From Candidatus Poribacteria bacterium (GTDB lineage Bacteria; Poribacteria; WGA-4E; WGA-3G), in contig OZ251518.1 of assembly GCA_965242965.1 (NCBI GenBank), forward strand, positions 384,001 to 448,000: a DNA stretch of 64,000 bases, given 5' to 3'. The stretch's first letter is position 1; every line of letters starts with the position of its first letter. The position numbers and the translations under genes were made by a program. The notes under the pieces were generated by a model. The model ran no database searches and had not been told where the DNA came from. It saw only the letters and a list, made by a program, of their open reading frames with translations. Below are positions 1,262 to 63,393 of this stretch, one piece after another.

Positions 1262-1511
1262 CAGTGTGTTTCATAAATCGTTCAACGGCGCGGGGATAGG
1301 CTCCCGCGCTACGATAAAAAACGCCATCCCTCACCGTAGGGCGAGGGCCTGTCCCTCGCCATGCGTTTTGCTGTCAGACCGCCTCACCCCTGTAGGTCAG
1401 GATCGCCTGATCCTGACCTGTTTGTGATTAGGCGATCACAAACTACAGAGGTGGGCCCGATGCGCGCCTCCAAGGGAGATAACTACCGAAACGGAGTTAG
1501 GAAACACCCCC
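1262..1511. mobile_element. TIR-bounded REP-mosaic MITE-like element, copy 1 (250 bp)
   Basis: Ends CAGTGTGTTTCATAA / TTAGGAAACACCCCC (2 mismatches each to consensus); AGTTAAT duplicated at 1255-1261 and 1512-1518; internal GTAG hairpins. Confidence 0.75.
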
Positions 1512-1513
1512 AG

Positions 1514-2242
1514 TTAATCAGTATGTGCGAATTGCGGTGCCGTTTCCAATTCCGATGCTTTGGTTTGCGTGTTGACATCTTCACATCCCGGTGGTTGTGC
1601 GCCGCGTATCCAGGGTTTCGGGCGTTTTTCCCATGGCAGTTTCGTGAAGCCGAGCCATCGGCAGAGGCGCGGGATATGTCCAGGGCGCGCAATACGGAGA
1701 TGCTCAATCTCCGGCACGATGATAGGCACTACTTCCCAGCGTCCATCGGGATAGGCGGCATTTTCCCGGTGTCGCGCGATGGGGTTAGGTTTCGGTATGT
1801 CGGTGTTTTTGAGCACCAAGGTTTCTATGTGTCGTTCGATGGCGAGTGCTGCTTTTGCATGGACTTCCATTGCGGTTTTGCCGTGTGCGGTGCAGCCGGG
1901 CAAATCTGGAACGCTGAGCCGGTAATGCCTCCGCCGTTTGCGGGTTATCAAGACCGGATAGTGGCGTAGTTCGGGCATCGTTATCGTCACGGTGTCCCAC
2001 TGCAGTGCATCGGCATATCCCGGGTCGTTCTGATGGTAGGCGATGTCCTGGGGTTCAGGAATCGGATCATCTTCAAGCATCATGCTTTCAAGATGTCCTT
2101 CGATTGCTTCCACGGCGCGCGTCAGCACCTGCTCTACGGTGTCTGCTGCAGTAATGCACCCTGGCAAATCGGGGACGACGATGCCGTAGATGCTGCCCGG
2201 GTCTTTGAAAATCGCAACAGGATATTGCATAAAAGTTTTCAT
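1514..2242 (-). CDS. hicB: HicB-family antitoxin with two tandem HicB-like domains (copy 1)
   Basis: Two YPVxI...VPDLPGC...A.EAI/LAIE.H repeats; lies directly downstream of hicA. Confidence 0.8.
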   Translation of the reverse strand: MKTFMQYPVAIFKDPGSIYGIVVPDLPGCITAADTVEQVLTRAVEAIEGHLESMMLEDDPIPEPQDIAYHQNDPGYADALQWDTVTITMPELRHYPVLITRKRRRHYRLSVPDLPGCTAHGKTAMEVHAKAALAIERHIETLVLKNTDIPKPNPIARHRENAAYPDGRWEVVPIIVPEIEHLRIARPGHIPRLCRWLGFTKLPWEKRPKPWIRGAQPPGCEDVNTQTKASELETAPQFAHTD

Positions 2243-2311
2243 ATCTCCAACTCCGAGTTTCTAATTTCTTGTCTTAAGGTAGACAGTTTGGTAGAGACCT
2301 CATCAGTTGTT

Positions 2312-2542
2312 TTAGTTCCACTTCCATCCGGCTTGTTCATAGATACTTCGCACCGTCCCGATCGGTATGTCTTTGTTTGGATGTGGAACAGATACCGTGC
2401 CTGACTTGTCGGTGTGCCTGAATTGATGGTGAGATCCTTTGATGCGATGTAGGAACCATCCTTCGCTTTCAAGCTGCTTTATCATGCGTCGCGAGTCTCG
2501 GAGACGTTTCCAACTGGGCCGCTTCGATTTGCGATGTTTCAT
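2312..2542 (-). CDS. hicA: HicA-family mRNA interferase toxin (copy 1)
   Basis: GW...KGSHHQFRH...VPHPNKDIPIGTVRSI..QAG is the HicA/YcfA signature. Confidence 0.85.
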   Translation of the reverse strand: MKHRKSKRPSWKRLRDSRRMIKQLESEGWFLHRIKGSHHQFRHTDKSGTVSVPHPNKDIPIGTVRSIYEQAGWKWN

Positions 2543-2554
2543 CTGTCCCCGGCG

Positions 2555-3268
2555 TTAAGCCTTGGCGTGTTCCGGTAGCATCCCTTCGTTTTCGGCGGTG
2601 CTGTCGGTTTCCGGTGGTTGTGCGCCGCGTATCCAGGGTTTCGGGCGTTTCTCCCATGGCAGTTTCGTGAACCCGAGCCATCGACAGAGGCGCGGGATAC
2701 GGCCAGGGCGCGCAATACGGAGATGCTCGATCTCCGGCACGATGATAGGCACCACTTCCCAATGTCCATCGGGACATGCAGCATTTCCTCGGTGTTGCGC
2801 GATGGGGTTGGGTTTCGGTATGTCCCTATTTTTGAGTATTCGTGCTTCCATGTGTCGTTCAATGGCGAGTGCTGCTTTTGCATGGACTTCCATTGCGGTT
2901 TTGCCACGCGCGGTACAGTCGGGCAAATCTGGGACGCTGAGCCGATAGTGCTTCCGCCGTTTGCGGGTTATCAAGACAGGATAGTGGCGCAGTTCTGGAA
3001 ACGCTACCGTTACCTCCTCCCACTGCCCCCCAGCATATTCTGGATATGCCGGATTGTTCTGATGGTAGGCGATGTCCTTAGGTTCGGGAATCGCATCTCC
3101 ATCAATTAACATGCCGCCGAGATGACATTTAATCGCTTCCACGGCCTGGGTCAGAACGTCCTCGACTGTATCGCCCCAGGTATAACACCCAGGTAAGTCT
3201 GGAACAATTACGCCGTAGTCGCTATCCGGGTCTTTGTGGATGACAATCGGATACCTAAAGATTTTCAT
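2555..3268 (-). CDS. hicB: HicB-family antitoxin with two tandem HicB-like domains (copy 2)
   Basis: Paralog of 1514-2242; YPIVIHKDPDSDYGVIVPDLPGCYTWGDT motif. Confidence 0.8.
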   Translation of the reverse strand: MKIFRYPIVIHKDPDSDYGVIVPDLPGCYTWGDTVEDVLTQAVEAIKCHLGGMLIDGDAIPEPKDIAYHQNNPAYPEYAGGQWEEVTVAFPELRHYPVLITRKRRKHYRLSVPDLPDCTARGKTAMEVHAKAALAIERHMEARILKNRDIPKPNPIAQHRGNAACPDGHWEVVPIIVPEIEHLRIARPGRIPRLCRWLGFTKLPWEKRPKPWIRGAQPPETDSTAENEGMLPEHAKA

Positions 3269-3305
3269 AATTCTAACTCCTGTTCCTACTTGGCATTTAA
3301 TGGCT

Positions 3306-3536
3306 TTAGTTCCACTCCCAGCCGGTCTGCCGATAGATATTCCGCAATGTGCTTATTGGGATATCTTTGTTTGGATGCGGCACCGAAGCTTTGCCCGGTT
3401 TGTCGGGATGTCTGAATTGATAGTGATCTCCGTTGGTTTGGACCCAGAACCATCCTTCGCTTTTAAGTTGTTTTATCATGCGCCTTGAGTCGCGGAGGCG
3501 TTTCCAACTGGGCCGCTTCGATTTGCGATGTTTCAT
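3306..3536 (-). CDS. hicA: HicA-family toxin (copy 2)
   Basis: NGDHYQFRHPDKPG..VPHPNKDIP; paralog of 2312-2542. Confidence 0.85.
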   Translation of the reverse strand: MKHRKSKRPSWKRLRDSRRMIKQLKSEGWFWVQTNGDHYQFRHPDKPGKASVPHPNKDIPISTLRNIYRQTGWEWN

Positions 3537-3548
3537 CTGTCCCCGGCG

Positions 3549-4247
3549 TTAAGCCTTGACGTGTTCCGGTAGCATCGCTTCGTTTTCGGCGGTGCTGTCG
3601 GTTTCCGGTGGTTGTGCGCCGCGTATCCAGGGTTTTGGGCGTTTTTCCCATGGCAGTTTCGTGAACCCGAGCCATCGGCAGAGGCGCGGGATACGCCCGG
3701 GACGCGCGATACGGAGATGCTCAATCTCCGGCACGATGATAGGCACCACTTCCCAATGTCCATCGGAATAGGCGGGATTTCCCCGGTGTTGCGCGATGGG
3801 TTTGGGTTTCGGTATGTCGGTGTTTTTGAGCACCAAGGCTTCCATGTGTCGTTCAATGGCGAGTGCTGCTTTTGCATGGACTTCCGTTGCGGTTTTGCCG
3901 TGCGCGGTGCAGCCGGGCAAGTCCGGGACGCTGAGTTGATAGTGCTTCCGCCGTTTGCGGGTTATCAAGACCGGATAGTGGCGCAGTTCGGGTAAGGTTA
4001 TGGTAACCCAATCCCACCGTTGGAAGTCGGCATAGTGCGGATTGTTTTGATGAGCGGCGATGTCCTGGGGTTCAGGAATCAGGTCTCCATCAATCAACAT
4101 GCCGCCGAGATGACATTTGATGGCTTCCACGGCTTGGATAAGCACTTCCTCAACGGTATCCGCTGCGGTAATGCATCCGGGTAAGTCCGGAACGAGGATG
4201 CAGTAATCACTATCCGGGTCTTTGTCAATCACGACAGGGTAACGCAT
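3549..4247 (-). CDS. hicB: HicB-family antitoxin with two tandem HicB-like domains (copy 3)
   Basis: MRYPVVIDKDPDSDYCILVPDLPGC; GGAGG RBS. Confidence 0.8.
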   Translation of the reverse strand: MRYPVVIDKDPDSDYCILVPDLPGCITAADTVEEVLIQAVEAIKCHLGGMLIDGDLIPEPQDIAAHQNNPHYADFQRWDWVTITLPELRHYPVLITRKRRKHYQLSVPDLPGCTAHGKTATEVHAKAALAIERHMEALVLKNTDIPKPKPIAQHRGNPAYSDGHWEVVPIIVPEIEHLRIARPGRIPRLCRWLGFTKLPWEKRPKPWIRGAQPPETDSTAENEAMLPEHVKA

Positions 4248-4317
4248 GAAACTTTCCTCCCTCTAATCATCTGTCTTGGTGTGGCCAACTTGGCATAAAG
4301 ATGCCATCAATTGTGAT

Positions 4318-4548: not shown

Positions 4549-4566
4549 CTGTCAAAATGTTCGCGC

Positions 4567-7806: not shown

Positions 7807-8290
7807 GAGGGGGTTTCATAAATCGATGCACACCCGTAGGAGAGACCTCCTGGTCTTGATGTTCCCGTAGCGCGGGGGCCTGTCCCCCGCGAGCGTTGGA
7901 TTGCACCGACGATGGCGAGGGACAGGCCCTCGCCCTACGGTGAGGGAGGGGCGTTTTTTTCGTAGCGCGGGGGCCTGTCCCCCGCGATCTCCATCGTCAC
8001 GATGTGTGTTTCCCCCTCTGTAGTTCGGGATCGCCTGATCCCGAACGGGTCAGGATCAGGCGATCCTGACCTACAGAGGGGATGCGGTCTGACTCCAAAA
8101 CGCATGGCGAGGGACAAGTTTTCCCACCGCCCCACGGCGAAAGGGACCGTTTTTTACCGTAGCGCGGGGGCCTGTCCCCCGCGATCGTTGCATGGCGAGG
8201 GACAGGCCCTCGCCCTACGGTGAGGGGAGGGTTTTTGTCGTAGCGCGGGGGCCGGAGGCAATCGAGACCAGGAGGTCTCTCCTACCGGGG
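7807..8290. repeat. REP mosaic with left TIR only
   Basis: GAGGGGGTTTCATAA at 7807 followed by about 10 GTAG/CTAC hairpins; no right TIR seen. Confidence 0.8.
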
Positions 8291-10456: not shown

Positions 10457-10714
10457 GAGGGTGTTTCATAAATACCGAAAGGCATCGAACCCGCCTCTGT
10501 AGTTCGGGAGCGCCCGCTCCCGAACGGGTCAGGATCAGGCGATCCTGACCTACAGGAGGGATGCGGTCTGATAGCCAAACGCATGGCGAGGGCCTGTCCC
10601 TCGTCCTACGTGAAGGGGCGGCGTTTTTTTCATCGTAGCGCGGGGGGCTCGGATGCCACACGCGCCTCCAATCGGGTTTCCCCCGCGACATTGAACGACT
10701 TATGAAACACCCTT
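10457..10714. mobile_element. TIR-bounded REP-mosaic element, copy 2 (258 bp)
   Basis: GAGGGTGTTTCATAA / TTATGAAACACCCTT; GATTTATT present on both flanks. Confidence 0.85.
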
Positions 10715-13812: not shown

Positions 13813-14230
13813 CGTAGGGTGAGGGGGGCGTTTTGTTTCGTAGCGCGGGGGCCCTCGGATGCCATACGCGCATGCGAGCGGGTTTCCCCCGCGATCCCCA
13901 TCGTCATGATGTGTGTTCCCCCTTCTGTAGTTTGTGATCGCCTGATCACAAACAGGTCAGGATCAGGCGATCCTGACCTACAGAGGGGAGGAGGTCTGCT
14001 GGCCAAACGCATGGCGAGGGACAGGCCCTCGCCCTACGATGAAGGGGGACCTTCTGCCGCCGCGGCCCCGGTAGGCGCGCCGCCCTATTGCATCGAGACC
14101 GGGAGGTCTCTCCTACAAGAAGGAATCGGGCTCACTCTGTAGTTCGGGAGCGCCCGCTCCCGAACAGGTTAGGATCAGGCGATCCTGACCTACAGAGGTG
14201 ATGACGTTGAGCAATTTATGAAACACCCTG
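13813..14230. repeat. REP mosaic with right TIR only
   Basis: Ends TTATGAAACACCCTG at 14216-14230; several GTAG hairpins and doublets. Confidence 0.8.
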
Positions 14231-16387: not shown

Positions 16388-17248
16388 TCCGTAGGGCGAG
16401 GGCCTGTCCGAGTTAAATCGCGTCTTAGTCCGTAGGGCGAGGGCCTGTCCCTCGCCAGGCCGGGGGATATGAATACGTGCCTTAGTCCGTAGGGCGAGGG
16501 CCTGTCCCTCGCCATGCCGGAATATGAATGTTCCTCGCCGTGCGGGAGCGTTAAGCGGCGGTTTTCATGATGCGAGAGATCGCGAGGGACAGGCCCTCGC
16601 GCTACGGGAACATCGAGCCGTTGGTGGAACGCGAGGGACAGGCCCTCGCGCTACGGGCCGGGAGGCGGTTATTTGAGGGTGTTTCATATTTCGATGCGTT
16701 CGGTAGGAGAGACCTCCCGGTCTCGATTTCTTCCGGTAGGAGAGACCTCCTGGTCTCAATGTTCCCTCTTTAGGTCCTTTAGGTCCTTAATGTCTATAGA
16801 AATACGTGTCATTACGTTGTCAAGGTCCTTTAGGTCCTTAATAGAGAAACAACGCAGCGTGTCAAAATTTATTAAGGACCTAAAGGACCTTAAATCTTTT
16901 CGTATCGCGGCTGCTATAGACATGCAGGACCTAAAGGACCTGAAGAGGCGTTATTTTCATCGTAGCGCGAGGGCCTGTCCCTCGAGATCTGTCCCGGTAG
17001 GAGAGACCTCCTGGTCTCGATGTTCTTCTGTAGTTTGTGATCGCCTGATCACAAACAGGTCAGGATCAGGCGATCTTGACTTACAGGGCCTGACGCGAGA
17101 GCGATCGCGAGGGACAGGCCCTCGCCCTACGGTAACATCGGGCTGTTTGCAGATCGCGAGGGACAGGCCCTCGCGCTACGGTGAAAGCGCGCCGTTGGTG
17201 GAACGCGAGGGACAGGCCCTCGCGCTACGGGCCGGGAGGAGGTTGTTT
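16388..17248. repeat. Large REP mosaic between convergent genes, with one left TIR and a 98-bp direct repeat
   Basis: TIR at 16675; direct repeats 16577-16674 and 17151-17248; AGGTCCT inverted array 16766-16947. Confidence 0.8.
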
Positions 17249-17252
17249 CGTA

Positions 17253-18197
17253 TCAATACCCCTTCTCCTTATCAATAACGCTGAGCAGGGGTTTGCCGAC
17301 TAGGAGGCGTTCTAGATTATCGCAGAAAAGCCCCACCGTCCGGTCCAGCCGAATTGGAGAGCCACCGGCGACATGCGGCGTGATAATCACGTTCGGCATA
17401 TCCCACAGCGGGCTATCCATTGACAGCGGTTCTTCTGGCGTGACATCTAACCCCGCGCCGCCGATGCTCCCGTTATTAAGCGCGCGGAGAAGTGATGGAC
17501 CGTCGACAATCTTGCCTCGCGTGACGTTAACGAGCAGTGCATGCGATTGCATCGCTTGGAACGCCGCGTCGTCAAACATCCCGTGTGTTTCTGGTGTCAA
17601 CGGCGCGCAAATGGCGACGACATCCGATTGCGCGAGCAGTTCATGGAACCGCTCCATCTGCCACACTTCATGGACGAAGGAAGGGGCATCGACTGTTTCC
17701 GGATCTACGGCGATGACGCGCATATCAAACCCTTGTGCGCGGCGTGCCACGTCAATCCCTGTGCCGCCGAGTCCGACGATGCCGAGGGTGCGTTCGCTCA
17801 GTTCCCATGTTGCGAGTCTGATGGACATGCGGTTGTCCCATGTCCGTTCGCGCACGGAACGTCCGATGCCGCGGAGTAAGCCGAGGATGAGTGCCCACGC
17901 CTGGTCTGCCAGATGCGGTCCGACGAACCCTTTCGCGCTTGTTAAGATGACATGGCTCTGGACAAATTCGGGAAACAGGAGTCCGTCAACGCCTGCGGAA
18001 AGCACTTGCACCCACTTAAGTTGCTCGGCATTCTCAAACAGTGTGCGGTTGAAGCCGCCGAAGACTACCTCGGTATCGCCGATTTCGCGAAGTGCCGCTG
18101 CAGCATTCTCTGCCTCAATGACATGCAATTGTTCGGATACCGCCTCTATCTGCTGTCGGTGTTCCGAGGTTATCTCGGTGTTAATCAAAATCTTCAT
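17253..18197 (-). CDS. D-isomer-specific 2-hydroxyacid dehydrogenase
   Basis: GIVGLGGTG, NVTRG, LDV..EPL, ITPHVAG motifs. Confidence 0.9.
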   Translation of the reverse strand: MKILINTEITSEHRQQIEAVSEQLHVIEAENAAAALREIGDTEVVFGGFNRTLFENAEQLKWVQVLSAGVDGLLFPEFVQSHVILTSAKGFVGPHLADQAWALILGLLRGIGRSVRERTWDNRMSIRLATWELSERTLGIVGLGGTGIDVARRAQGFDMRVIAVDPETVDAPSFVHEVWQMERFHELLAQSDVVAICAPLTPETHGMFDDAAFQAMQSHALLVNVTRGKIVDGPSLLRALNNGSIGGAGLDVTPEEPLSMDSPLWDMPNVIITPHVAGGSPIRLDRTVGLFCDNLERLLVGKPLLSVIDKEKGY

Positions 18198-18277: not shown

Positions 18278-18450
18278 GAGGGTGTTTCATAAATCGCCAT
18301 GCGTTTTGGTGTCAGACCGCATTCCCCTGTAGTTCAGGATCGCCTGATCCTGATCCGTTCGAGATCGGGCGATCTCGAACTACAGAGGTGGGCCCAATGC
18401 CTTTTTCTATCGGTTTTCGCCCATCCCCCAAGGGGGAATAAATACCGAAA
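18278..18450. repeat. Truncated element with left TIR only
   Basis: GAGGGTGTTTCATAA at 18278, one hairpin doublet, stops inside the ATAAATACCGAAA subterminal sequence. Confidence 0.75.
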
Positions 18451-19078: not shown

Positions 19079-19508
19079 CAGGGTGTTTCATAATTCCGTT
19101 TCGGTATTTATCCCACCGTGGAGGGCAGGCGAATATCGCAAGGCATCGGGCCCACCTCTGTAGTTCGAGATCGGGCGATCTCGAACGGGTCAAGATCAGG
19201 CGATCTTGACCTACAGGGGTGAGGCAGTCTGACACCAACACGCATGGCGAGGGACAGGCCCTCGCCCTACGATGACGTGCCGTTTTTTCGCCGTAGCGCG
19301 GGGGCCTGTCCCCCGCGATCGTTGGATTGCGCATGCGCGGACGATGGCGAGGGAAACCCGCTCGGATGCGCGTGTGGCATCCGAGGGCCCTCGCGCTACG
19401 ATGAGGGGGGGCTTTCTGCCGCCGCTGCCCCGATAGGCGCGCCGCCCTACCGCATCGAGACCGGGAGGTCTCTCCTACCCGGAGGGCATCGATTTATGAA
19501 ACACCCTC
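19079..19508. mobile_element. TIR-bounded REP-mosaic element, copy 3 (430 bp)
   Basis: CAGGGTGTTTCATAA / TTATGAAACACCCTC; no clear target duplication. Confidence 0.85.
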
Positions 19509-23489: not shown

Positions 23490-24109
23490 GAGGGTGTTTC
23501 ATAACTCCGTTTCGGTATTTATCCCTCTTGGGGAGCAGGCGACTCCCGCGCCTTCTTGGTAGGAGAGACCTCCCGGTCTCGATGCAATAGGGCGGCGCGC
23601 CTACCGGAGCCGCGGCGGCAGAAGGTCCCCCTTCATCGTAGGGCGAGGGCCTGTCCCTCGCCATCGCTCGCGCAACCCAACGATCGCGGGGGACAGGCCC
23701 CCGCGCTACGGTATCCGGAACGGCTCCATTTACCGTAGGGCGAGGGCCTGTCCCTCGCCATGCTGCGATCGCGGAGAAACCCGCTCGCCTGCGCATATGG
23801 AAATTTCCGAGGGCCCCCGCGCGACAGAGCCTGAAACGCTCGCGGGGGACAGGCCCCCGCGCTACGGTAGCCGGAACGGCTCCATTTACCGTAGGACGAG
23901 GGCCCTCGCATGCCACACGCGCATGCGAGAGGGTTTCCCTCGCCATGCGTTTGGCTGTCAAACCTCATCACCTCTGTAGGTCAGGATCGCCTGATCCTGA
24001 CCCGTTCGGGTGCAGGCGCACCCGAACTACAGAGGTGGGCCCGATGTTTTCCGAATCGTTCGAGGTCTCACGAAATCATTTTGACAACAACGACTTATGA
24101 AACACCCTC
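23490..24109. mobile_element. TIR-bounded REP-mosaic element, copy 4 (620 bp)
   Basis: Perfect GAGGGTGTTTCATAA / TTATGAAACACCCTC. Confidence 0.85.
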
Positions 24110-28039: not shown

Positions 28040-28712
28040 CCAAACGCCGTTTTTTTTATCCTAGCGTGATGGCCTGTCCCCCGCGAGCGTTGGAGCGCGC
28101 GGACGATGGCGAGGGACAGGCCCTCGCCCTACGATGAAGGGGCGTTTTTTTCCGTAGCGCGGGGGCCCTCGGATGCCAGACGCGCATCCGAGCGGGTTTC
28201 CCCCGCGATGGCTCAAGCACCGTTTTTTTTTCGTAGCGCGGGGGCCTGTCCCCCGCGATCGTCCATCGTCAAGTTATGTTTTTAGGTCCTACGGACTGAA
28301 GAGAACAAGAAACGTTTTTTTTCATTCTGTAGTTTGTGATCGCCTGATCACAAACGGTTCAGGAGCAGGTGCTCCTGAACTACAGGGCCTGGCGCGCGAA
28401 GGATGGCGAGGGACAGGCCCTCGCCCTACGGTAAGGCACGCCGTTTTTTCGCGTAGCGCGGGGGCCTGTCCCCCGCGATCGTTGGAGCGCGCGGACGATG
28501 GCGAGGGGAACCCGGCAGGCGTTGGGCCCACCTCTGTAGTTCGGGAGCACCCGCTCCCGAACGGGTCAAGATCAGGCGATCTTGACCTACAGGGGTGAGG
28601 CAGTCTGACACCAACACGCATGGCGAGGGACAGGCCCTCGCCCTACGGTGAAAGCGGCAATCAAGCCTGGCGAGGGAAACCCGTGCCGTTGGATGATTTA
28701 TGAAACACCCTC
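28040..28712. repeat. REP mosaic with right TIR only
   Basis: TTATGAAACACCCTC at 28698-28712; many hairpin modules. Confidence 0.8.
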
Positions 28713-30533: not shown

Positions 30534-31013
30534 GAGGGTGTTTCATATCGCGATGCACACCTGTAGGAGAGACCTCCCGGTCTCGATGCCGCCCAGTAGG
30601 AGAGCCCTCTGGTCTCGATGTTCCCGTAGCGCGGGAGCCCTCGGATGCCATCCGCGCATCCGAGCGGGTTTCCCCCGCGAGCACCATCGTCAAGATCTGG
30701 TCTCAATGTTCCCGTAGCGCGGGGGCCCTCGGATGCCATCCGCGCATCCGAGCGGGTTTCCCCCGCGAGCACCATCGTCAAGATGCTGTCTTAGGTCCTT
30801 TAGGTCCTACATGTCTATAGAAAAACGTGTCGGCCCTAGTCAAGGTCCTTTAGGTCCTTAATAACACACGCGCGGCCCTGGTAAAATCTATTAAGGACCT
30901 AAAGGACCTTAGCGTTCTTCGCGGGTGCGCGTGCTATAGACATTAAGGACCTAAAGGACCTAAAAGACGTTTTTTTCATCGTATTTGACAACAACGAGTT
31001 ATGAAACACCCTC
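30534..31013. mobile_element. TIR-bounded REP-mosaic element, copy 5 (480 bp) with 9-bp TSD
   Basis: TIRs present; GTTAAGACT at 30525-30533 and 31014-31022. Confidence 0.9.
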
Positions 31014-32654: not shown

Positions 32655-33045
32655 GAGGGTGTTTCATAACTCCGTTTCGGTATTTATTCCATCTTGGGGG
32701 CGGGCGAAAACTGAGCCCTCTTGGTAGGCGAGACCGGAAGGGTTCTCCTACCGGAAGGTGTCGGACCCACCTCTGTAGTTCGGGAGCGCGATGCGCCTGC
32801 CTCAGCACAGATTGCGGAGGTTGATGTCGGGCCCACCTCTGTAGTTCGGGAGCGCCTGCTCCCGAACGGGTCAGGATCAGGCGATCCTGACCTACAGAGC
32901 CTGGCGATCGCAGCATGGCGAGGGACAGGCCCTCGCCCTACGTGAAGGGACGGCGTTTTTTATCGTAGCGCGGGAGCCCTCGGATGCCACACGCGCATGG
33001 CGAGAGGGTCCCCCCCCGACGTTGAGCGATTTATGAAACACTATC
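32655..33045. mobile_element. TIR-bounded REP-mosaic element, copy 6 (391 bp)
   Basis: GAGGGTGTTTCATAA / TTATGAAACACTATC. Confidence 0.8.
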
Positions 33046-36303: not shown

Positions 36304-36333
36304 TTGCAATGCATTGCGAATTTAAGGTATAAT
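36304..36333 (+). promoter_or_regulatory. Sigma70 promoter, probably giving a leaderless mRNA
   Basis: TTGCAA-18 nt-TATAAT with ATG 6 nt downstream and no Shine-Dalgarno. Confidence 0.55.
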
Positions 36334-36339
36334 CACATT

Positions 36340-39300
36340 ATGACAACACTTAACCTGAAACCAACTCACAAAGCGATAACCGCCTATTATGCCGCACTCA
36401 ACAGGTATCAACAGCACGGGGTAACCCACGAAACCGCCGTGCGCGCCGCCTTTCAAGCACTCCTCGAAGCCTGCACGCGACAACTTGACTGGACGCTGAT
36501 TTGTGAACAGACACTACGCCTCCCCGATAGAAATCCTATCCGCCTCGATGGCGCGCTGCTCGACGAACATAGTTTGCCCCGCGGCACCTGGGAGGCAAAA
36601 GGCGTTAAAGGAGCTCTCCGCGCCGAAATCAATAAGAAATTCGACGCAGGCTATCCCCAGGACAACATCCTCTTCCAAACACCGGAACGCGCCATTCTCT
36701 ATCAAAACGGACGCGAAGTGATGGACGCAGACATCACCGCACCGGAAACGCTTGTCACGGTGTTGCAGACGTTCTTTGCCTACGAGCGCGCGAACGCCGC
36801 CGAATGGCGCGCCGCCGTCGCACGCTTCAAAGAACTTGTCCCCGAACTCGGGGCGGAGGCGGCGAACCTTATCCAAACGCAGCACGAAACAAACGCGCAA
36901 TTCCGCGCCGATTTCACCGCGTTTCACGAACTCTGCAAAACCGCCATCAACCCGAATCTCTCGGCGGCGGCTGTCCAAGAGATGCTCGTCCAACATCTTC
37001 TCACCGAACGGATGTTCCGCACTGTCTTCGAGGATCCGGATTTCGCCCACCGCAATATCATCGCCCGCGAAATTGAAAAAGTCCTCAAGGGAACACTGGC
37101 GAACTTCCTCAACCGCGGCCAACTGCTCCAAAAACTCACGCCGTTCTATCGCGAAATCGAACGCGAGGCAGCTACACTCGTCGATTTCTCGCAGAAACAG
37201 CACTTCCTCAACACCGTTTACGAGCAGTTCTTCCAAGGCTTCTCCGTGAAGCAGGCGGATACGCACGGCATCGTTTACACCCCGCAGCCTATCGTCGATT
37301 TTATGGCGAACAGCGTCCAGCATATCCTCCAAACCGAATTCGACCACGCGCTGGCAGATGAAGGCGTTCACATCATCGATGCGTTCGTCGGCACCGGCAA
37401 CTTCATCGTCCGACTCATGCGCGACATCCCCAAGACGAAACTGGAGGCGAAATACCGAAACGAACTCTGGTGCAACGAAGTGCTGTTATTGCCTTATTAC
37501 ATCGCCACGCTCAACATCGAGCACGAATTCTACGCCGCCACCGGCACCTATCTGCCGTTTGAAGGCATCTCCCTCGTGGATACGTTCGAGTTAGCGGAAG
37601 ACCGGCAGTTGTCGCTCTTAACCGCTGAAAACACGGCGCGTGTGGCGAAGCAGCAAGCCTCGCCGATGTTCGTCGTCATCGGAAATCCGCCCTATAACGC
37701 CGGGCAAATCAACGAAAACGATAACAACAAAAATCGGAATTATCCGACGCTGGAGGCGCGCGTGCGAGAAACCTATGCGAAAGACTCCACCGCAACGCTC
37801 AAAAATTCGCTCTATGACACTTACGTCAAGGCACTTCGTTGGGCTTCCGATAGGATTGGCAAACAGGGGATCGTCGCGCTCGTCACGAATAACAGTTTTC
37901 TTAGCGGCACCTCGTTTGATGGCATGCGGAAACACCTCGCTGAAGACTTTGATGCCATCTATGTCGTCGATTTGGGCGGCAATGCGCGGCGTGATAAACT
38001 TGTCGCTGATGCAAGCGTTTTTGGTATCCGCGTCGGGGTGAGTATTAATTTTTTCGTGAAAAACCCTTCCCGGCGATCGCGGGGGACAGGCCCCCGCGCT
38101 ACGGTGCCTTCCGGTCTCGATGGGATCGCGGGGGACAGGCCCCCGCGCTACGGTAACGGGGAAAATTCCGCGCGCATCTTCTATTACCGCACCGATGACG
38201 CGTGGAACAAACACCAGAAATTCGATTTCTTGACGCAAACTGAACACGTTGGGAATGTGGACTGGCAAACGCTAGAACCCGATGCACGAAATACCTGGCT
38301 CACCGAAGGACTCAACCCTGAATTTTTGACGTTCATGCCGATAGGGAGCAAAACGGCAAAACGGGAAAAAAAGGAGCCCGCCGGGGTGATATTCCACCAG
38401 TTCAGCAACGGTTTGAAAACAAACCGGGATGCATGGGCTTACAACTTCAACCGCGATGCGCTCGCTGAAAACATGCAGCGCATGATAGGTGCCTATAACG
38501 CGCAGGTCTCCCAGTGGCGCGATAGGGACGACAACGCGGAGATAAGTGTTGACGATTTTGTCGATGCCGACTTGCGGAAAATCAAATGGAGTGGCGATTT
38601 GAAAACCGCTCTCAAAAAAGGGGTTTTCGCGGCGTTTTCCAATGAAAAATTGCGAACGTCTCTCTACCGTCCTTTCACCCGTTCTTTTCTGTTCTTCGAC
38701 CGGCTCATGAATAACGGCACCTTTCTTCAGCCCTATATCTTCCCTACGCCGGAGACAGAAAAGGAAAATCTCGTTCTCTCTGCCGCGGGAACTGGGCATC
38801 GGACGGGATTTGGCTGTCTCGTCTCAAACGTCATTCCCAATGTAGATCTTGCCTATGAAAAAGGGCAGTGCTTCCCGTTCTACTTTTACGATGAAGATGG
38901 CACTAACCGCCGAGAAAACATCACCGATTGGGCATTGGAAAACTTCCGCAAGCACTATGGCGACGATACCATCACGAAATGGAACATTTTCCACTACACC
39001 TACGGTATCTTGCATCATCCTGCGTATCGCGAACGTTACGCCGCTGATCTCAAGCGCGATTTACCGCATATCCCCTACGCCGACGATTTCTGGGCATTTG
39101 CAAACGCCGGCGCACGGTTAGCGGAACTTCATGTCAACTACGAGGCGCAGCCGGAGTATCCGCTCACGTTTGTCGAAGATGCGACGCGGCAGTTGGATTT
39201 CCGCGTGGAAAAAATGAGGTTGTCCAAGGACAAGACCTCGCTTATCTATAACGAGTTTCTGACGTTGGAGGGGATTCCTGCGGCGGTGTTTTCGTATCGC

Positions 39301-39492
39301 TTGGGTCAGTATTCGGCGTTGGAGTGGGTGGTGAAGCAGTATCGTGTGAAGGCGGATGCGCGGAGTGGTATTGTGAACGATCCGAACGATGCGTCGAATC
39401 CGCGTTATATCGTGGAGCTCATCGGTTCGGTGGTTACGGTGAGTTTGGAGACGTGTAAGATTGTTGGGGGTTTGCCATCGTTTCGTTCGTGA
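36340..39492 (+). CDS. Fused restriction-modification enzyme (N6-adenine MTase, type IIG/ISP-like, no helicase)
   Basis: RLDG...WEAK nuclease-like motif, GIVYTPQPIVDF, DAFVGTGNF (motif I), GNPPY (motif IV), LlaGI-like C-terminus GLKTNRDAW, YRPF, YGILH.P.YR. Confidence 0.85.
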   Translation: MTTLNLKPTHKAITAYYAALNRYQQHGVTHETAVRAAFQALLEACTRQLDWTLICEQTLRLPDRNPIRLDGALLDEHSLPRGTWEAKGVKGALRAEINKKFDAGYPQDNILFQTPERAILYQNGREVMDADITAPETLVTVLQTFFAYERANAAEWRAAVARFKELVPELGAEAANLIQTQHETNAQFRADFTAFHELCKTAINPNLSAAAVQEMLVQHLLTERMFRTVFEDPDFAHRNIIAREIEKVLKGTLANFLNRGQLLQKLTPFYREIEREAATLVDFSQKQHFLNTVYEQFFQGFSVKQADTHGIVYTPQPIVDFMANSVQHILQTEFDHALADEGVHIIDAFVGTGNFIVRLMRDIPKTKLEAKYRNELWCNEVLLLPYYIATLNIEHEFYAATGTYLPFEGISLVDTFELAEDRQLSLLTAENTARVAKQQASPMFVVIGNPPYNAGQINENDNNKNRNYPTLEARVRETYAKDSTATLKNSLYDTYVKALRWASDRIGKQGIVALVTNNSFLSGTSFDGMRKHLAEDFDAIYVVDLGGNARRDKLVADASVFGIRVGVSINFFVKNPSRRSRGTGPRATVPSGLDGIAGDRPPRYGNGENSARIFYYRTDDAWNKHQKFDFLTQTEHVGNVDWQTLEPDARNTWLTEGLNPEFLTFMPIGSKTAKREKKEPAGVIFHQFSNGLKTNRDAWAYNFNRDALAENMQRMIGAYNAQVSQWRDRDDNAEISVDDFVDADLRKIKWSGDLKTALKKGVFAAFSNEKLRTSLYRPFTRSFLFFDRLMNNGTFLQPYIFPTPETEKENLVLSAAGTGHRTGFGCLVSNVIPNVDLAYEKGQCFPFYFYDEDGTNRRENITDWALENFRKHYGDDTITKWNIFHYTYGILHHPAYRERYAADLKRDLPHIPYADDFWAFANAGARLAELHVNYEAQPEYPLTFVEDATRQLDFRVEKMRLSKDKTSLIYNEFLTLEGIPAAVFSYRLGQYSALEWVVKQYRVKADARSGIVNDPNDASNPRYIVELIGSVVTVSLETCKIVGGLPSFRS

Positions 39493-47055: not shown

Positions 47056-47407
47056 GAGGGTGTTTCATAAGTCCGTTTCGGTATTTATTCCGCCTTGGAG
47101 GGCTGGCGAACACCAGAAGGCATCGGGTCCATCTCTGTAGTTCGGGCTCGCCTGATCCCGAATGGGGCATGGAGAGGAGAACCCCTCCCTGGCCCGTAGC
47201 GCGGGGGCCTGTCCCCCGCGATCGTTCGATCTGCGCGAAAAACGCACACTGGCCAAAGCCGTTTCCCCAATCGAGGCACGGCGAGGGACAGGCCCTCGCC
47301 CTACGGGCCAGGGCGGCGTTTTTTCACCGTAGCGCGGGGCCCTCGGATGCCACACGCGCATCCGAGCGGGTTTCACCGCGACGTTGAGCGAGTTATGAAA
47401 CACCCTC
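47056..47407. mobile_element. TIR-bounded REP-mosaic element, copy 7 (352 bp) with 10-bp TSD
   Basis: Perfect TIRs; AACGTAATCT at 47046-47055 and 47408-47417. Confidence 0.9.
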
Positions 47408-54415: not shown

Positions 54416-54681
54416 GAGGGTGTTTCATAAATCACTCAACGTCGCGGGAACAGGCTCCGCGCTACGGTGAAAAAAACGCCGCCCTTCACGTAGGGCGAGG
54501 GCCTGTCCCTCGCCATGCGTTTTGGTGTCAGACCGCATCACACCTGTAGGTCAAGATCGCCTGATCTTGACCCGTTTGTGATCAGGCGATCACAAACTAC
54601 AGAGGTGGGCCAAATGCCTTCCGGTATTCGCCCGCCCGCCAAGGCAGGATAAATACCGAAACGGAATTATGAAACACCCTC
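54416..54681. mobile_element. TIR-bounded REP-mosaic element, copy 8 (266 bp)
   Basis: Perfect TIRs; flanks TTTTAACT / TTCTAACC may be a decayed TSD. Confidence 0.85.
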
Positions 54682-55836: not shown

Positions 55837-56099
55837 GCTTCCGTTCGCGATTTTGCCGAAGTGGCAATGCGTTCAGTTACCCATTCCTGCACCAGCGTTG
55901 CGGGTGAAGTTCCGCGGGCGTTCGCGAGCGTCTTCACCACTTCCGCTTCGTTGGGGTTTAATCGCACGGTGACTTTGGTTTCAAAAACGGGTTCGGTGAC
56001 TTCCTCGAGTTCGTCCTCAAAATCAGTCAGATCGTGCGTATCCCAGAACTGCGCGAGTTCTGGGATGGAGTCGGTTTGGGGGATTTTGGAACGGTTCAT
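55833..56099 (-). CDS. CopG/BrnA-like antitoxin
   Basis: E.A.FWDTHDLTDF followed by RHH-like VTVRL...A..RG....L...W. Confidence 0.75.
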   Translation of the reverse strand: MNRSKIPQTDSIPELAQFWDTHDLTDFEDELEEVTEPVFETKVTVRLNPNEAEVVKTLANARGTSPATLVQEWVTERIATSAKSRTEA

Positions 56100-56124
56100 T
56101 GGTTCCTCCGCTATCGCTATGAGA

Positions 56125-58173
56125 TCAGGAGACGTTTTCCTGGAACCAATCCAACGACGGCCAGATTTCGTAGAAATAAAGGATTAATTCTTCCGCCCTC
56201 TCGCGAATTTCGTTGACATCCCATCTGTCATGCCTGTATATCTCCTTATTCAGTTTCAAGCGTGAATGCTTATTTAAAATTTTTTTCTTCTCGGCGAATT
56301 CCTTATCGCGCAGACGGGAGTTGAGCTGCCGTGTGACGAGCGTTAGGTTGCCTATACTTTGTAAGAAATCATCTCTCACTATCGCCAAATTAAAAGCATG
56401 CAAATAGGATTCTTTAGCCAACGCATCCCTGGAAGGTCTTCCGAAATTTGCCTTCTTCACTTTATCGGCATCAGCAAAGAATTGCGGGTTTTTCACTATA
56501 TAGTCGTCAGTAAAGAGTTCCTTGTAGTGGAGTAGAACACCCGCGTCTCCAACTTCGCTGTTGAGATAGAGGCCGTCCTTTTCGCGGACGATAGTTCCGG
56601 CGACTGGTAAACACCAAGTTTTTTTCCAATTTTTTGGCATTACGTGTTCCAAGGTAAAATTAGCGTCGTTAAAAACTGCAGGTTCTGTGAACTGGTCTTC
56701 ACTTATTTTCATCTGTTCAATCCGGTACAGGATGTAACGAATGAGTCTTATTTTGATTTGACCTGCTGTTTCAAACCAATGCCTATGCAACACAGCTTTG
56801 ATAGTCATATTGTCGGGAAAAACGACAGTATCCTCGTCAGGAAAGAGTGTTGGAGATTCGTCGTATTGAATGTGCAGTGCAGGTTCAACCTCATCATCAC
56901 TGGGATGCCTTAGTGTATCTGAGGTTTCCTTAACTAGGCGTTCTATGAATTTTCCAACACTAAAATCTTTTCCAAGTTCTTTAACGAGTTTAGAAAAGAA
57001 TTGGTTGAAATTTTTCACGCCGCCTTCGCCGCGACAGCACAACATACGCCGGATTGTGTAAGACTCCAGAATATCAAAGACGTGCTGAAGTGCGTCCCCG
57101 GATAGTCTTACTTCGCACGTTACAAATAAGATAAACGGATGCAGCGTTGTGAGGTTGAAGATTTGATAAAACTTCATTCTCCGACCGATTTCCGAATCAT
57201 CGTTGCAATCGGTCATTTCCTGATAAATCTCTGAATATCGCTTTAATTCGGAAAATTCGTGTTCTATGCCGAGGCAGTTATCCTCTAGTCCCCGACGATA
57301 CCGCCGCTGATACGCCTTAAACTCCGGTCTAACCTGCTCTGTTCCTAGTTTTGCCATGAGAAAGTGCTGGAGGAAGAGTTCGGAGGAGGTTCCCGAATTC
57401 TTTACTTCTGGATCCCAATAGGGAGTCTCAAAGTGTGCCCAGTACCGGTTATAGAATGTGTCTCTGTCTGCACCAGCCCTCAGAAATAGGTTATTCCGGA
57501 GTAAATCAAATTCAAGCAGACGTTTTCCTCTTGCATTGATCGACTCAAATATCTTTTCGGGTTCATCATCTGGACCCAGCGATATTTGAACCAGACCAAA
57601 GTCATGCAGAATTGAACGAAATAGGGCAAGTAATTTCTTTTTTTCGCCGTTCGCGTAATCCGCAATCTCATTTTTGAAATAGCAAAATGCTGAATGAATG
57701 CGGCTATCACTAGAACCTGCAAGTCCCTCAACTAGTGATTGGAATGCCTCTCTATCAAACTCGGTTGGAACAAGTTTATAGCGCTCATCTTCACTGAGCA
57801 GCATCCCTGAATTCTGTATGTAGAGGTTTACGTCGTTTGCAATGTCATCATAATTGTGTGCTTTGGATATATCTTTCAGCGCACAAAAGATAATTTGAAA
57901 CGTTGTAAGACGTTGTTGCCCATCAATAATTTCATATTTTGGGACTGTCCCGGCACTTGTCATCACTTGTTGGATGACGATGGCCCCAGTAAAATGGCTA
58001 AATTCTTGAGCTTGGTATTGTGAGGATTTTCGGTGCAATTTTCCTACAATATCTTCCCAAAGTGGTTGCCACTGATCCTCCCTGTTCCAGACGTAATGCC
58101 GCTGGAAAAGGGGGATTCGGAACTGCAAATTTTGTCCAAACAAAGAAGCTATCTGTAATTTGGTTACGTCCAT
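56125..58173 (-). CDS. GmrSD-type (DUF262+DUF1524) modification-dependent restriction endonuclease
   Basis: IPLFQRHYVW, IDGQQRLTT, FESINARG, TLEHVMP, IGNLTLV..LN; visibly AT-richer than its neighbours. Confidence 0.88.
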   Translation of the reverse strand: MDVTKLQIASLFGQNLQFRIPLFQRHYVWNREDQWQPLWEDIVGKLHRKSSQYQAQEFSHFTGAIVIQQVMTSAGTVPKYEIIDGQQRLTTFQIIFCALKDISKAHNYDDIANDVNLYIQNSGMLLSEDERYKLVPTEFDREAFQSLVEGLAGSSDSRIHSAFCYFKNEIADYANGEKKKLLALFRSILHDFGLVQISLGPDDEPEKIFESINARGKRLLEFDLLRNNLFLRAGADRDTFYNRYWAHFETPYWDPEVKNSGTSSELFLQHFLMAKLGTEQVRPEFKAYQRRYRRGLEDNCLGIEHEFSELKRYSEIYQEMTDCNDDSEIGRRMKFYQIFNLTTLHPFILFVTCEVRLSGDALQHVFDILESYTIRRMLCCRGEGGVKNFNQFFSKLVKELGKDFSVGKFIERLVKETSDTLRHPSDDEVEPALHIQYDESPTLFPDEDTVVFPDNMTIKAVLHRHWFETAGQIKIRLIRYILYRIEQMKISEDQFTEPAVFNDANFTLEHVMPKNWKKTWCLPVAGTIVREKDGLYLNSEVGDAGVLLHYKELFTDDYIVKNPQFFADADKVKKANFGRPSRDALAKESYLHAFNLAIVRDDFLQSIGNLTLVTRQLNSRLRDKEFAEKKKILNKHSRLKLNKEIYRHDRWDVNEIRERAEELILYFYEIWPSLDWFQENVS

Positions 58174-58687: not shown

Positions 58688-58698
58688 ACGCTACCTTA

Positions 58699-59596: not shown

Positions 59597-59645
59597 CGTC
59601 TAAAGGATACCACCCTACGAAAAATTTTGCAAGTTAAAATTCCCA

Positions 59646-60104: not shown

Positions 60105-60108
60105 CGGT

Positions 60109-60363: not shown

Positions 60364-60376
60364 GAGATCGTCCTCC

Positions 60377-60979: not shown

Positions 60980-60987
60980 CGGTTCAC

Positions 60988-61221
60988 CTATGGAAAGAAA
61001 CTCTTGATCAACGCCATGAGCGCGATGAAAACCGACGCGATGGCTATCCAAGTCGCGCGTCGCGCTAATGTTTCGCTCTTCGCCTCTTCTCTGCCTTCAA
61101 GTTTGCCGCGAATCCAACCGACTTCGCGCTCCAAGGACTCAAAATGTTTTTGTGTCTCGTCGCGAAAAGTTTCAAAGCGTTGGGTTAGACGCTCAATGGC
61201 TTTCAAAATTTGTTCGTTCAT
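60988..61221 (-). CDS. Small coiled-coil protein with C-terminal TM helix
   Basis: 77 aa; own promoter-like TTGCTA...TATAAT on the minus strand near 61255-61284. Confidence 0.6.
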   Translation of the reverse strand: MNEQILKAIERLTQRFETFRDETQKHFESLEREVGWIRGKLEGREEAKSETLARRATWIAIASVFIALMALIKSFFP

Positions 61222-61455
61222 GAAAAGCCTGCTCTTTTGTGTTTGATAAAATTATTATACCATAGTTTGCATTTGGATAGCAAATTATTTTTTGAGGTAT
61301 TGTAGTTTGGTGCGGGCAGCGGGTTCGTCTGTGTGTTTAGCATGGCGAGGGACAGGCCCTCGCCCTACGATGAGGACAAACTACCGTAGCGCGGGGGCCT
61401 GTCCCCCGCGAATTTGTCGCGACAAAGCAAACGTTCCTTCGCCCGTGGCCGCGCG

Positions 61456-62649
61456 TCACAAACTTACACCTAATTCGTTTGCGATGGTGTAGACATCTTT
61501 GTCGCCGCGGCCGGAGAGACAGACGACGATAACCCGGTCGGCGTTCATCTCGGGTGCGAGTTTGCGGAGGTAGGCGATGGCGTGCGCCGACTCTAACGCC
61601 GGGATGATGCCCTCTGTTTCCGATAAGAGTTGGAAGCCTTCCACAGCCTCTGCGTCCGTGATGGGGACATATTCTGCCCTCCCTGTCTCGCGATAATAGC
61701 TGTGCTCCGGTCCGACACCGGGGTAATCTAATCCTGCGGAGATGGAGTGCGCGGGGGTTATCTGTCCATCGTTTTCCTGCAACAGATAGCACTTGGCACC
61801 GTGAAATACGCCGATGCTTCCGGCGGTGAGGGGCGCGGCATGTCTTCCGCTGCGGATGCTCTCGCCGGCGGCTTCTACGCCGATGAGTTTGACCTCTTTG
61901 TCGGCGTAAAAGGGGTAGAACATGCCGAGCGAATTGCTTCCTCCACCGACGCATGCGACGACGCAATCGGGCAATTTTCCCTCTTTCTCTAAAATCTGCG
62001 AGCGTGCTTCTTCACCGATAACGGCTTGAAAGTCTCGGACGAGCATCGGATACGGATGCGCGCCGACAACGGAGCCGAGTAGGAGATAGGTGCTTCGCAC
62101 GTTCGTCACCCAATCGCGGAAGCAGGCGTTGATTGCATCTTTAAGCGTTCGCGAGCCGGAGTTGACAGGGATTACCTTCGTGCCCATCAACTGCATCCGG
62201 AAGACATTGAGGGATTGGCGTTCAATGTCCTCTTCGCCCATGTAGACATCGCATTCCATGTCAAATTTTGCGGCGACGGTAGCGGTTGCAACGCCGTGCT
62301 GTCCGGCACCGGTTTCGGCGATGATACGCTTTTTACCCATCCAGCGCGCGAGCAGGATTTGCCCGATGGCACTGTTGATTTTGTGCGCGCCGGTGTGATT
62401 CAGGTCTTCGCGTTTCAGATATATTTTCGCGCCGCCGAGTGCTTGTGTCAAGCGTTCGGCGTAGTAAAGCGGATTCGGTCTTCCGACATATTCGCTGAGG
62501 TATGCCTGAAATTCGGCTTGGAAATCGGGGTTGGATTTCAGGGTGTTGTATGCCTCTTCCAATTCAAGCAAGGCGGGCATGAGCGTTTCGGGGACATATC
62601 TGCCGCCGAATTGTCCAAAATGTCCCGTTGCGTCGGGGAGTTGTTGCAT
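61456..62649 (-). CDS. trpB: Tryptophan synthase beta chain
   Basis: [60 protein letters not shown]. Confidence 0.98.
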
Positions 62650-62753
62650 TGTGAGTTCTCCTATTTATGAACGGGTGGATGTAGAAATCCACCCTTACAA
62701 AACGATTTTTGTGATTGTTTTCGGGAGCAGGTGCTCCCGAACTACAGTTATGT

Positions 62754-63393
62754 GAGGGTGTTTCATAAATCCGCGGTAAGAGAGACCCCCCAGTCTCAAT
62801 ATCGTCCGCGCAATCCAACGATCGCGGGGGACAGGCCCCCGCGCTACGGAAAAAACGGCATTTCACCGTAGGGCGAGGGCCTGTCCCTCGCCATCGCTCG
62901 CTCGCCAGGTCTGTAGGTCAAGATCGCCTGATCCTGACCTGTTTGTGATCAGGCGATCACAAACTACAGAGGCGGAAACACACATCGGGACGATGGCCAA
63001 CGCGGGGGACAGGCCCCCGCGCTACGGAAAAAACGGCACTTCACCGTAGGGCGAGGGCCTGTCCCTCGCCATGCTGCGGTCTATCGGACATTCGCGGGGG
63101 CCTGTCCCCCGCGCTACGGTAACGTGAGGCGTTCTTGGCAGCAGCACGGCCGCCTTCATCGTAGGGCGAGGGCCTGTCCCTCGCCGTGCTGCGGGCTATC
63201 AAAAACCTCTTTTAGGTCCGTAGGACCTACATGTCTATAGAAAAACGTGCCGCACCCTATCAAGGTCCGTAGGTCCTTAATAAGGTTTATAGTGTTGTTG
63301 CATCGAGACCAGGAGGTCTCTCCTACTGAGGAAACGGCATCGTTCGGAATCTCACGAAACCATTTTGACAACAACGAATTATGAAACACCCTC
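62754..63393. mobile_element. TIR-bounded REP-mosaic element, copy 9 (640 bp) with 8-bp TSD
   Basis: Perfect TIRs; AGTTATGT at 62746-62753 and 63394-63401. Confidence 0.9.

Follow-up and report, generated by a model that had tools for sequence, protein, structure and literature searches.

Repetitive extragenic palindromic (REP) sequences and miniature inverted-repeat transposable elements (MITEs) are generally regarded as distinct classes of small repeats, moved by different enzymes. Bacterial MITEs derived from insertion sequences (ISs) include Correia/NEMIS, RUP, Nezha and Chunjie. Here we describe elements in which both classes are combined, found in a stretch of 64,000 nucleotides (the window) of a Candidatus Poribacteria bacterium (assembly GCA_965242965.1, contig OZ251518.1, positions 384,001 to 448,000, or G000:C1:384001-448000, G000 being the genome under study). 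The elements, referred to as shells, share their terminal inverted repeats (TIRs) and enclose REP hairpins. They are best explained as a fossil MITE family with a body resembling bacterial interspersed mosaic elements (BIMEs), which would derive from a 1.1-kb IS of Poribacteria and in which the REPs and at least one gene are passengers (probability roughly 0.7). The initial annotation of the window had seen in them a candidate for an undescribed system; the finding unites, in an unusual way, two known kinds of mobile DNA and is not a new system.

Like IS-derived MITEs, the elements are short and non-coding, have 15-bp TIRs, a target-site duplication (TSD) of fixed length and an A/T-rich target, and are accompanied by a same-ended parent IS, by empty sites in relatives and by hundreds of copies. 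Unlike them, they have an interior that consists almost wholly of the REP hairpins of another mobile system, a collinear relative exists for only about 30% of the copies (84-87 of 290), about 40% of the ends stand single, and the ends also bound a gene-carrying segment. The resemblance to the BIMEs of E. coli and to the REP doublets forming hairpins (REPINs) of Pseudomonas with their REP-associated tyrosine transposase (RAYT), as far as the accessible passages of PMC2817692 and PMC3116915 describe them, lies in the GTAG head followed by an imperfect palindrome, the inverted pairs and alternating arrays, the thousands of extragenic copies and the REP-flanked RAYT gene. The differences are that about 15% of the hairpins here lie in DDE-type TIR shells and are copied by shell transposition, that one RAYT gene stands for at least four hairpin families, and that a headless 25-nt hairpin is nested in REP loops.

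Some of the MITE names given above are among the small-repeat families listed in the accessible parts of Di Nocera et al. (2013; PMC3733652), where the nearest published precedent that was found is also described, namely the long palindromes of Anabaena variabilis that contain GTAG REP dimers, together with the CGTC dimers of Halothiobacillus neapolitanus. In those systems, as here, REP units regularly stand inside a longer inverted repeat; the palindromes are, in these parts of the paper, tied to no transposase, TSD or parent IS, and none is found without REPs, whereas the ends described here belong to a DDE IS and come with TSDs and empty sites, and the cargo varies. A physical link between REPs and a transposase-driven element is also known from the insertion of ISs such as IS621 and IS1594 into REPs (passages of Delihas, 2011; PMC3184786), which is the reverse arrangement: those elements land in REPs, whereas here the element encloses the REPs and targets an A/T-rich octamer. 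No REP-filled MITE is mentioned in the accessible passages of that small-repeat review, and no literature on MITEs or REPs in Poribacteria was found in a search that judged papers on Poribacteria and RAYTs by their titles and the start of their abstracts.

The ends carry the first part of the evidence. Allowing up to two mismatches, the 15-mer GAGGGTGTTTCATAA has 23 matches in the window, as against 0.08 expected, and none of 100 shuffles reaches 23. Eighteen of these matches form nine adjacent inverted (+/-) pairs, at precisely the positions where nine elements sharing a TIR had been annotated; the other five (7807(+), 14216(-), 16675(+), 18278(+) and 28698(-)) are single ends that had not been listed. 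The whole chromosome (5.66 Mb) contains 989 such ends (396 exact, 411 with one mismatch and 182 with two) and the 38-kb second contig none at the same tolerance. When a + end is paired with a - end that is the very next end and lies within 2.5 kb, 298 inverted pairs with a median length of 368 bp result, and 393 ends are left unpaired. Of the 298 pairs, 98 are flanked by exact direct repeats of 7 bp or more that abut the ends, compared with about 0.9 when the right flanks are shuffled, so that the genome-wide tabulation proposed by the initial annotation places flanking duplications far above chance. Their lengths (62 of 8 bp, 26 of 9, 4 of 10, 3 of 7, 2 of 11 and 1 of 12) have their mode at 8 bp, which is the length of the target duplication, longer repeats being expected from chance extension in A/T-rich flanks. 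The eight flanking bases follow a strong consensus, A-n-T-T-A-A-n-T, with T and A each at 75% in the two central positions. All four duplications noticed in the window belong to the 98; their differing lengths, at first taken at face value, are best read as a single 8-bp TSD extended by chance, and the 7-bp case (AGTTAAT, at 1262) belongs to an element with mismatched ends. Together with the empty sites and the same-ended IS of relatives described below, the TSD identifies the inverted ends as true transposon ends.

At three sites (G000:C1:658553/658576, 2596139/2596162 and 3695477/3695500), the right end of one shell and the left end of another stand exactly 8 nt apart, as if a second element had hit the duplication of the first.

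The elements and single ends of the window are the following, with a strand for single ends; A to D denote REP families described further on.

1262..1511, no strand: MITE copy of 250 bp, of the canonical ~266-bp family, with TSD AGTTAAT and the REPs A1(-) A2(+) B2(+) B1(-) inside
7807..8285, + strand: unpaired left end that leads into a REP mosaic of ~480 bp, with the inner C-type REP arm retained and the right TIR missing
10457..10714, no strand: MITE copy of 258 bp, of a 5-copy family; flanking octamer GATTTATT offset by 3 nt
13840..14230, - strand: REP mosaic closed by a single right end (14216-14230) and containing the A2-spacer-B2/B1 block of the canonical MITE
16675..17260, + strand: single left end with a C-type REP arm, inside a ~900-bp REP array (16390-17260)
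18278..18450, + strand: single left end of a canonical-type element with an internal deletion; the right arm is present without its TIR
19079..19508, no strand: MITE copy of 430 bp without an intact TSD
23490..24109, no strand: MITE copy of 620 bp with eight annotated REP modules
28040..28712, - strand: ~670-bp BIME-like array of alternating A1/A2 REPs, closed by a single right end (28698-28712)
30534..31013, no strand: MITE copy of 480 bp with TSD GTTAAGACT; the right arm retains IS-end-like sequence, and the interior is a ~280-bp composite block found in 137 copies genome-wide, many of them without a TIR
32655..33045, no strand: MITE copy of 391 bp; two mismatches in the right TIR, and the TSD not intact
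47056..47407, no strand: MITE copy of 352 bp with TSD AACGTAATCT
54416..54681, no strand: MITE copy of 266 bp, of the canonical family, with a decayed TSD
62754..63393, no strand: MITE copy of 640 bp with TSD AGTTATGT, inserted directly beside a REP

As annotated, the nine complete elements range from 250 to 640 bp and differ in the number, order and orientation of their GTAG-headed hairpins. The few types of subterminal arm that had been named are also the commonest genome-wide (252, 137 and 35 ends, plus a TTCGATG-type group), and they do combine in various ways, the pairings of the main arm clusters being counted 57, 25, 10, 10 and so on. The absence of a mobilising enzyme from the window held for the families scanned, namely that of the parent transposase, PF01609 and Y1/RAYT, and no Rfam family exceeded its threshold in the window. 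The edge of the element at 1262..1511 lies 18 nt upstream of the start codon of the open reading frame (ORF) 104..1243(-), just past the ribosome-binding site, and the promoter of this gene must therefore be within or beyond the element. At window positions 56001-58000, which cover a 682-aa ORF (56125..58173(-)), the G+C content falls to 0.435 from about 0.55 elsewhere, and this stretch is possibly acquired DNA.

Comparison with two sister species, represented by G001 and G002, provides the empty sites that the initial annotation had proposed to look for. Synteny with the window is found at G002:C1:2.65-2.71 Mb and on several contigs of G001, with 80-92% identity. Opposite the element at 30534-31013, which here stands between two copies of GTTAAGACT, the site in G002 is precisely empty and shows GTTGAGACT once, and a 2902-bp element discussed below has precise empty sites in both species. 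The flanks of the sites 1262, 32655, 47056, 54416 and 62754 lie 3-69 nt apart in a sister genome (BLAST). A recognisable single target copy is present in the sister sequence at 30534 and, diverged, at 1262 (G002), and in the other four near-joined sites the short spacer is too diverged for a clean empty-site call. At 62754 the G002 flanks are 4 nt apart; at 47056 those of G001 are 3 nt apart without a recognisable target copy, and the spacer there must therefore have diverged or been deleted. Conversely, two other G001 shells face empty sites in G000. Exact TIRs number 396 in G000, 3 in G001 (about 8 ends when one mismatch is allowed) and 1 in G002. The pattern of the main REP family, REP-A, occurs 4157, 937 and 536 times in G000, G001 and G002, respectively, and twice in G004, and was absent from the remaining 37 of the 41 genomes searched. 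The REPs are thus old in the genus, since their main family is present in all three species, and the burst of shells is specific to one species, with the qualification that draft genomes may under-assemble repeats.

A DDE transposase gene bounded by the same TIR, which had been suggested as a target for searching, was found in related genomes. Among 40 relatives searched, a genome of the same family and another genus (G022) contains the exact 15-mer 14 times, arranged as seven pairs 1107 bp apart. One of these copies, L003, has the TSD AGATAATT and a single 332-aa ORF that matches Pfam DDE_Tnp_1_3 (8e-10; 39.3 bits vs a cut-off of 27) and DDE_Tnp_1 (26.9 vs 23). In the sources, this protein is labelled only 'hypothetical'. 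Its score on NF033520 is 55.2 bits, below the cut-off of 130 for IS982, and from these profile matches the parent transposase is predicted to be a DDE transposase of the IS4/IS5/IS982 kind, no single family being assigned. In species-representative genomes, 79 related loci were detected, each of them labelled as Candidatus Poribacteria or Chloroflexota. A TIR pair by the pairing rule of this analysis was present in 34 of the 79, full length (1106-1137 bp) in 27, and an exact 8-bp TSD in 11 of these 27; five of the 34 are internal-deletion derivatives of 404-741 bp, and a second IS subgroup, 43-48% identical, has the variant end GAGGGGTGTTCATAA. Three full-length IS copies of one Poribacteria genome (L032, L033 and L034) have flanking octamers that match across copies in a chain (AGACAATT, ACTTAATT), which suggests recombination between IS copies.

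In the genome under study itself the transposase survives as a relic, two fragments corresponding to residues 1-37 and 192-243 with ~45% identity, beside a perfect end at C1:2371732-2371746, and the only exact TIR end of G002 belongs to a similar relic. No match to PF01609 was found in G000. An autonomous copy was also looked for inside the long TIR pairs, and those of at least 800 bp hold ordinary genes or REP arrays and no transposase, by eye and by the searches made. Further traces of the IS are a subterminal sequence of at least 55 nt resembling its left end at 7 ends (arm cluster 14) and a shorter stretch of it at 35 (cluster 5). With its TIRs, its 8-bp TSD, the empty sites in sister species and a same-ended parent IS, the shell has the standing first ascribed to it, that of a DDE-mobilised, non-autonomous element.

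The hairpins belong to a second, distinct kind of mobile DNA. Defined as a perfect stem of at least 7 bp with a loop of 3-8 nt, 9772 hairpins are present on the chromosome, and 6189 of them have a GTAG head within a few bases of the stem foot. Family A (GTAG[C/G]GCG[G/A]GGGCCTGTCCC...) comprises ~4000 copies with compensatory stem variants; family B occurs as GTAGTTCGGGAGC..., GTAGTTTGTGATC... and GTAGGTCAGGATC..., and two further GTAG families, C and D, were distinguished. These hairpins are true REPs, as had been supposed, and fit the general pattern of 20-40 nt palindromes in high copy with a GT[AG]G head. They occupy most of the intergenic gaps of this genome, their extragenic position being judged by eye in the window. 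Family-A loops may themselves contain a nested, headless 25-nt hairpin (CTCGGATGCC..GCATCCGAG) with 445 perfect copies (531 within 2 mismatches), in the window at 13850-13900, 28160-28210 and 30630-30690, and in ~4% of family-A REPs the loop and inner stem are reverse-complemented (GGGACAGGCCC for GGGCCTGTCCC), a small inversion within the palindrome. The arrays are BIME-like, with alternating A1/A2 units and two alternating spacers. The search for Y1 HUH genes flanked by such hairpins yielded one RAYT gene (C1:3147526-3147990(-); NF047646, 120.6 bits vs a cut-off of 80), which has family-B REPs on both sides. A second candidate, L001 (G000:C1:3123891-3127127), was rejected as a RAYT; it is an IS605-type element with a 408-aa TnpB-like ORF and a broken TnpA, interrupted by two TGA codons, which is the only other Y1 match in the genome.

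That the REPs are carried by the shell is indicated by shells with shared interiors. In an all-vs-all comparison of the 290 shells of up to 1 kb (117 kb in total), 84 can be matched to a relative that is collinear with them across 90% or more of both (87 by a second rule), and likeness of the copies over their whole length, the usual mark of a MITE family, is accordingly confined to 84-87 of 290. The largest family has 52 members of ~266 bp, including those at window positions 1262 and 54416, and smaller families have 6, 6 and 5. The canonical consensus of the largest family reads TIR, 10-nt arm, A1(-), 24-nt spacer, A2(+), 31-nt spacer, B2(+)B1(-), 65-nt non-REP arm, TIR. The 52 shells stand at different loci, several with intact TSDs, and share this four-REP interior; the REPs must therefore have travelled with the shell, as the initial annotation had proposed. 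A 30-nt nested hairpin is found at the same point in 12 of the 40 members that were aligned (5 of the 12 with intact TSDs), which is most simply explained by a cargo change that transposition later transmitted, although recurrent conversion may have produced it instead.

The cargo is not restricted to REPs. Octamer matching across all ends brought up two long TIR-bounded segments, the first of which (G000:C1:54311-57212; 2902 bp) has the 8-bp TSD ATTTAAGT on both sides, a cargo with a 588-aa ORF containing ankyrin repeats and a dockerin domain, and, as counterparts in G001 and G002, precise empty sites at which ATTTAAAT or ATCTAAAT occurs once. The second (G000:C1:188873-192792; 3920 bp) has matching octamers AATAAATT and a Type ISP restriction-modification-like ORF, and the corresponding sister sites are not cleanly empty. 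The shell is thus cargo-agnostic, moving whatever DNA stands between its ends, REP mosaics as well as at least one gene segment. Type ISP restriction-modification-like genes have ten or more paralogous matches in each sister genome, and a similar many-paralogue pattern is seen in the window for the region of a 1062-aa ORF at 36304-39492.

Given a DDE shell and true REPs, the question is how tightly the two are joined. The initial annotation proposed a two-tier system in which the shell carries and rearranges REP modules; its DDE shell, its REPs and the carriage of the cargo have stood up, whereas the coupling and the rearrangement by the shell have not. In its strongest form, the shell would be the main seeder of REP/BIME arrays at new loci and an HUH enzyme would rearrange the modules within shells. 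This is unlikely, even though 1891 of the 6189 REP hairpins lie in clusters adjoining a TIR, the abundance of REP-A in G000, about 8 times that in G002, parallels the shell burst, variants of the cargo have been passed on by transposition, and the REP units in shells are better conserved than the spacers. The remaining 4298 hairpins are in clusters without any TIR. Nor do the REPs appear as a dedicated or coupled cargo: counted by shell, 940 GTAG hairpins are inside the 290 shells and 85% are outside them, and 1507 of the 2114 REP clusters have no TIR within 150 nt. These arrays do not look like eroded shells, a possibility that was considered and rejected: arms specific to the MITE adjoin a TIR in 266 of 285 and 74 of 76 cases and are hardly ever found apart from one. 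The REP family moreover predates the shell burst, both sister species having hundreds of REPs and almost no shells; composite blocks such as the A2-spacer-B2/B1 block of the canonical shell are also present in TIR-less arrays; and the shell carries non-REP cargo, including a gene, as well. There is no sign of REP events that depend on a TIR, and nothing in the data has the shell itself rearranging modules.

At the opposite extreme, the shells might have been free of REPs when they transposed, all REPs having entered later as in any intergenic DNA. In support of this, REP arrays in orthologous spacers differ widely between species, as at 23490, where the orthologous spacer measures 189 bp in G002 and 979 bp in G001, and spacers without shells likewise differ greatly in length. 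Elements with different cargo at the same site, which had been suggested as a comparison to make and which speak for this reading too, were found at two sites shared by G000 and G001. At the first, a complete 263-bp shell of G001 (G001:C102:14122-14384) shares its right junction with a G000 locus that has the right end only (C1:3015001), a different arm and a different 440-bp mosaic, and there is no end in G002. At the second, an 863-bp shell of G001 (G001:C102; L105 827-1689) with the duplication AGTTAATT corresponds to a 479-bp element of G000 with a degenerate left end and an arm that matches the G001 arm inverted. Later entry of all REPs is nonetheless very improbable, because 52 shells at different loci have the same four REPs in the same order and with the same spacers, and the families of 6, 6 and 5 likewise; because one copy in G001 and a shell at a non-orthologous locus of G000 agree at 93.6%, with their REPs included; and because no short shell family free of REPs was seen, the arms beginning with REPs 6-16 nt from the TIR.

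It is hardly credible, finally, that the ends are of the tyrosine-transposase type, like the TIRs around RAYT-like genes, and were moved by an HUH rather than a DDE enzyme, since the same 15-mer bounds a DDE-transposase IS in many genomes, the RAYT gene is flanked here by REPs and not by the TIR, and an 8-bp TSD is, to our knowledge, not produced by the single-strand transposition of HUH enzymes (IS200/IS605 family). The coexistence of REP and TIR families with tyrosine transposases, reported in the accessible parts of Di Nocera et al. (2013; PMC3733652), is what speaks for it.

The fossil MITE family with REPs as passengers is consistent with the age of the copies. Identity across 424 collinear pairs reaches 96.0% at best and has a median of 86.3%. 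The copies are thus old, 4-20% diverged, and, with no intact transposase left, the family is a fossil in this genome. By our own arithmetic, a change of ~7% per copy predicts that ~31% of the 8+8-bp TSDs remain intact (33% observed), and it also predicts the observed spread of zero, one and two end mismatches. Remodelling in place is indicated by the two sites shared with G001 at which the cargo differs. Changes of the cargo have left marks as well: breakpoints relative to the canonical consensus concentrate in REP loops and at REP edges (positions 34, 88 and 103), which together with the flipped family-A loops points to recombination at palindromes. The subterminal arms fall into 147 clusters, the three largest with 252, 137 and 126 ends.

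Several observations weigh against this explanation. The first is that for 203 of the 290 shells, 68 of which have intact TSDs, there is no collinear relative, and for most copies the cargo may therefore have changed either before or after insertion. The second concerns the single ends, since ~7% decay predicts only ~50 of them where roughly 400 are observed, leaving ~340 of the 393-409 without an explanation in point mutation, and most of them therefore need another cause. Two explanations were pursued and rejected. Decayed partners account for few: a partner carrying 3 errors lies within 1.2 kb of 22 single ends, a degenerate one whose TSD matches was found for 11, and at up to 4 errors the inward matches (173) do not exceed the outward control (180). 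Recombination between copies, which would swap flanks and so also remove TSDs, gave no signal either (294 cross matches vs 403 in the control). Third, in the largest family (three of the 40 aligned members being dropped from the divergence table for poor alignment), the divergence from the consensus is ~4% in the REP units A2 and B2, 10-13% in the spacers and 17% in the non-REP arm; A2 and B2 are thus 2-3 times better conserved than the spacers, which points to constraint, conversion or renewal beyond neutral decay. Fourth, the two same-site cases could be independent insertions into a favoured target, especially the one at AGTTAATT, which matches the target consensus perfectly. Fifth, there is a single RAYT gene genome-wide, and none was found for families A, C and D, the commonest family, A, flanking no RAYT gene.

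The sequence of events that would link these elements starts with MITEs derived from a 1.1-kb IS that is widespread in Candidatus Poribacteria, defined by the TIR GAGGGTGTTTCATAA, encoding one DDE transposase and duplicating 8 bp at A/T-rich targets of the form A-n-T-T-A-A-n-T. Acting in trans, this transposase, since lost, would have moved any DNA that stood between two inverted ends. Such DNA would mostly have been the resident GTAG-headed, BIME-like REP mosaic, a separate system served by the single RAYT gene, and at least once a whole gene. Cargo differences between shells may have arisen in three ways: several sub-families with different REP interiors would have been mobilised, REP arrays would change quickly throughout the genome, inside or outside of shells, and the burst would be old enough for such changes to have accumulated. 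Candidate routes for the remodelling of arrays include inversion between inverted REPs, deletion or duplication between direct REPs, insertion of nested hairpins, conversion from other arrays and possibly the action of the RAYT. The autonomous IS would have decayed since, leaving the present shells as fossils.

For the biology of these repeats, it matters that several hundred REP copies have demonstrably been duplicated as passengers of a DDE-type MITE, and REP abundance in a genome therefore need not reflect the activity of RAYTs alone. A further-reaching possibility, which we put forward tentatively, is that, in this lineage of sponge symbionts, REP/BIME arrays and at least one eukaryote-like (ankyrin-repeat) gene were spread by a cargo-agnostic DDE shell acting as their vector, that the REPs multiplied largely on foreign machinery and not through their own RAYT, and that this would account for a large share of their roughly eightfold expansion relative to the sister species. 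The dated, TSD-marked shells also constitute natural markers for the pace at which REP arrays are remodelled. Ankyrin-repeat genes are much discussed in sponge symbionts, and the movement of such a gene by the same ends suggests one route by which these genes may spread within genomes.

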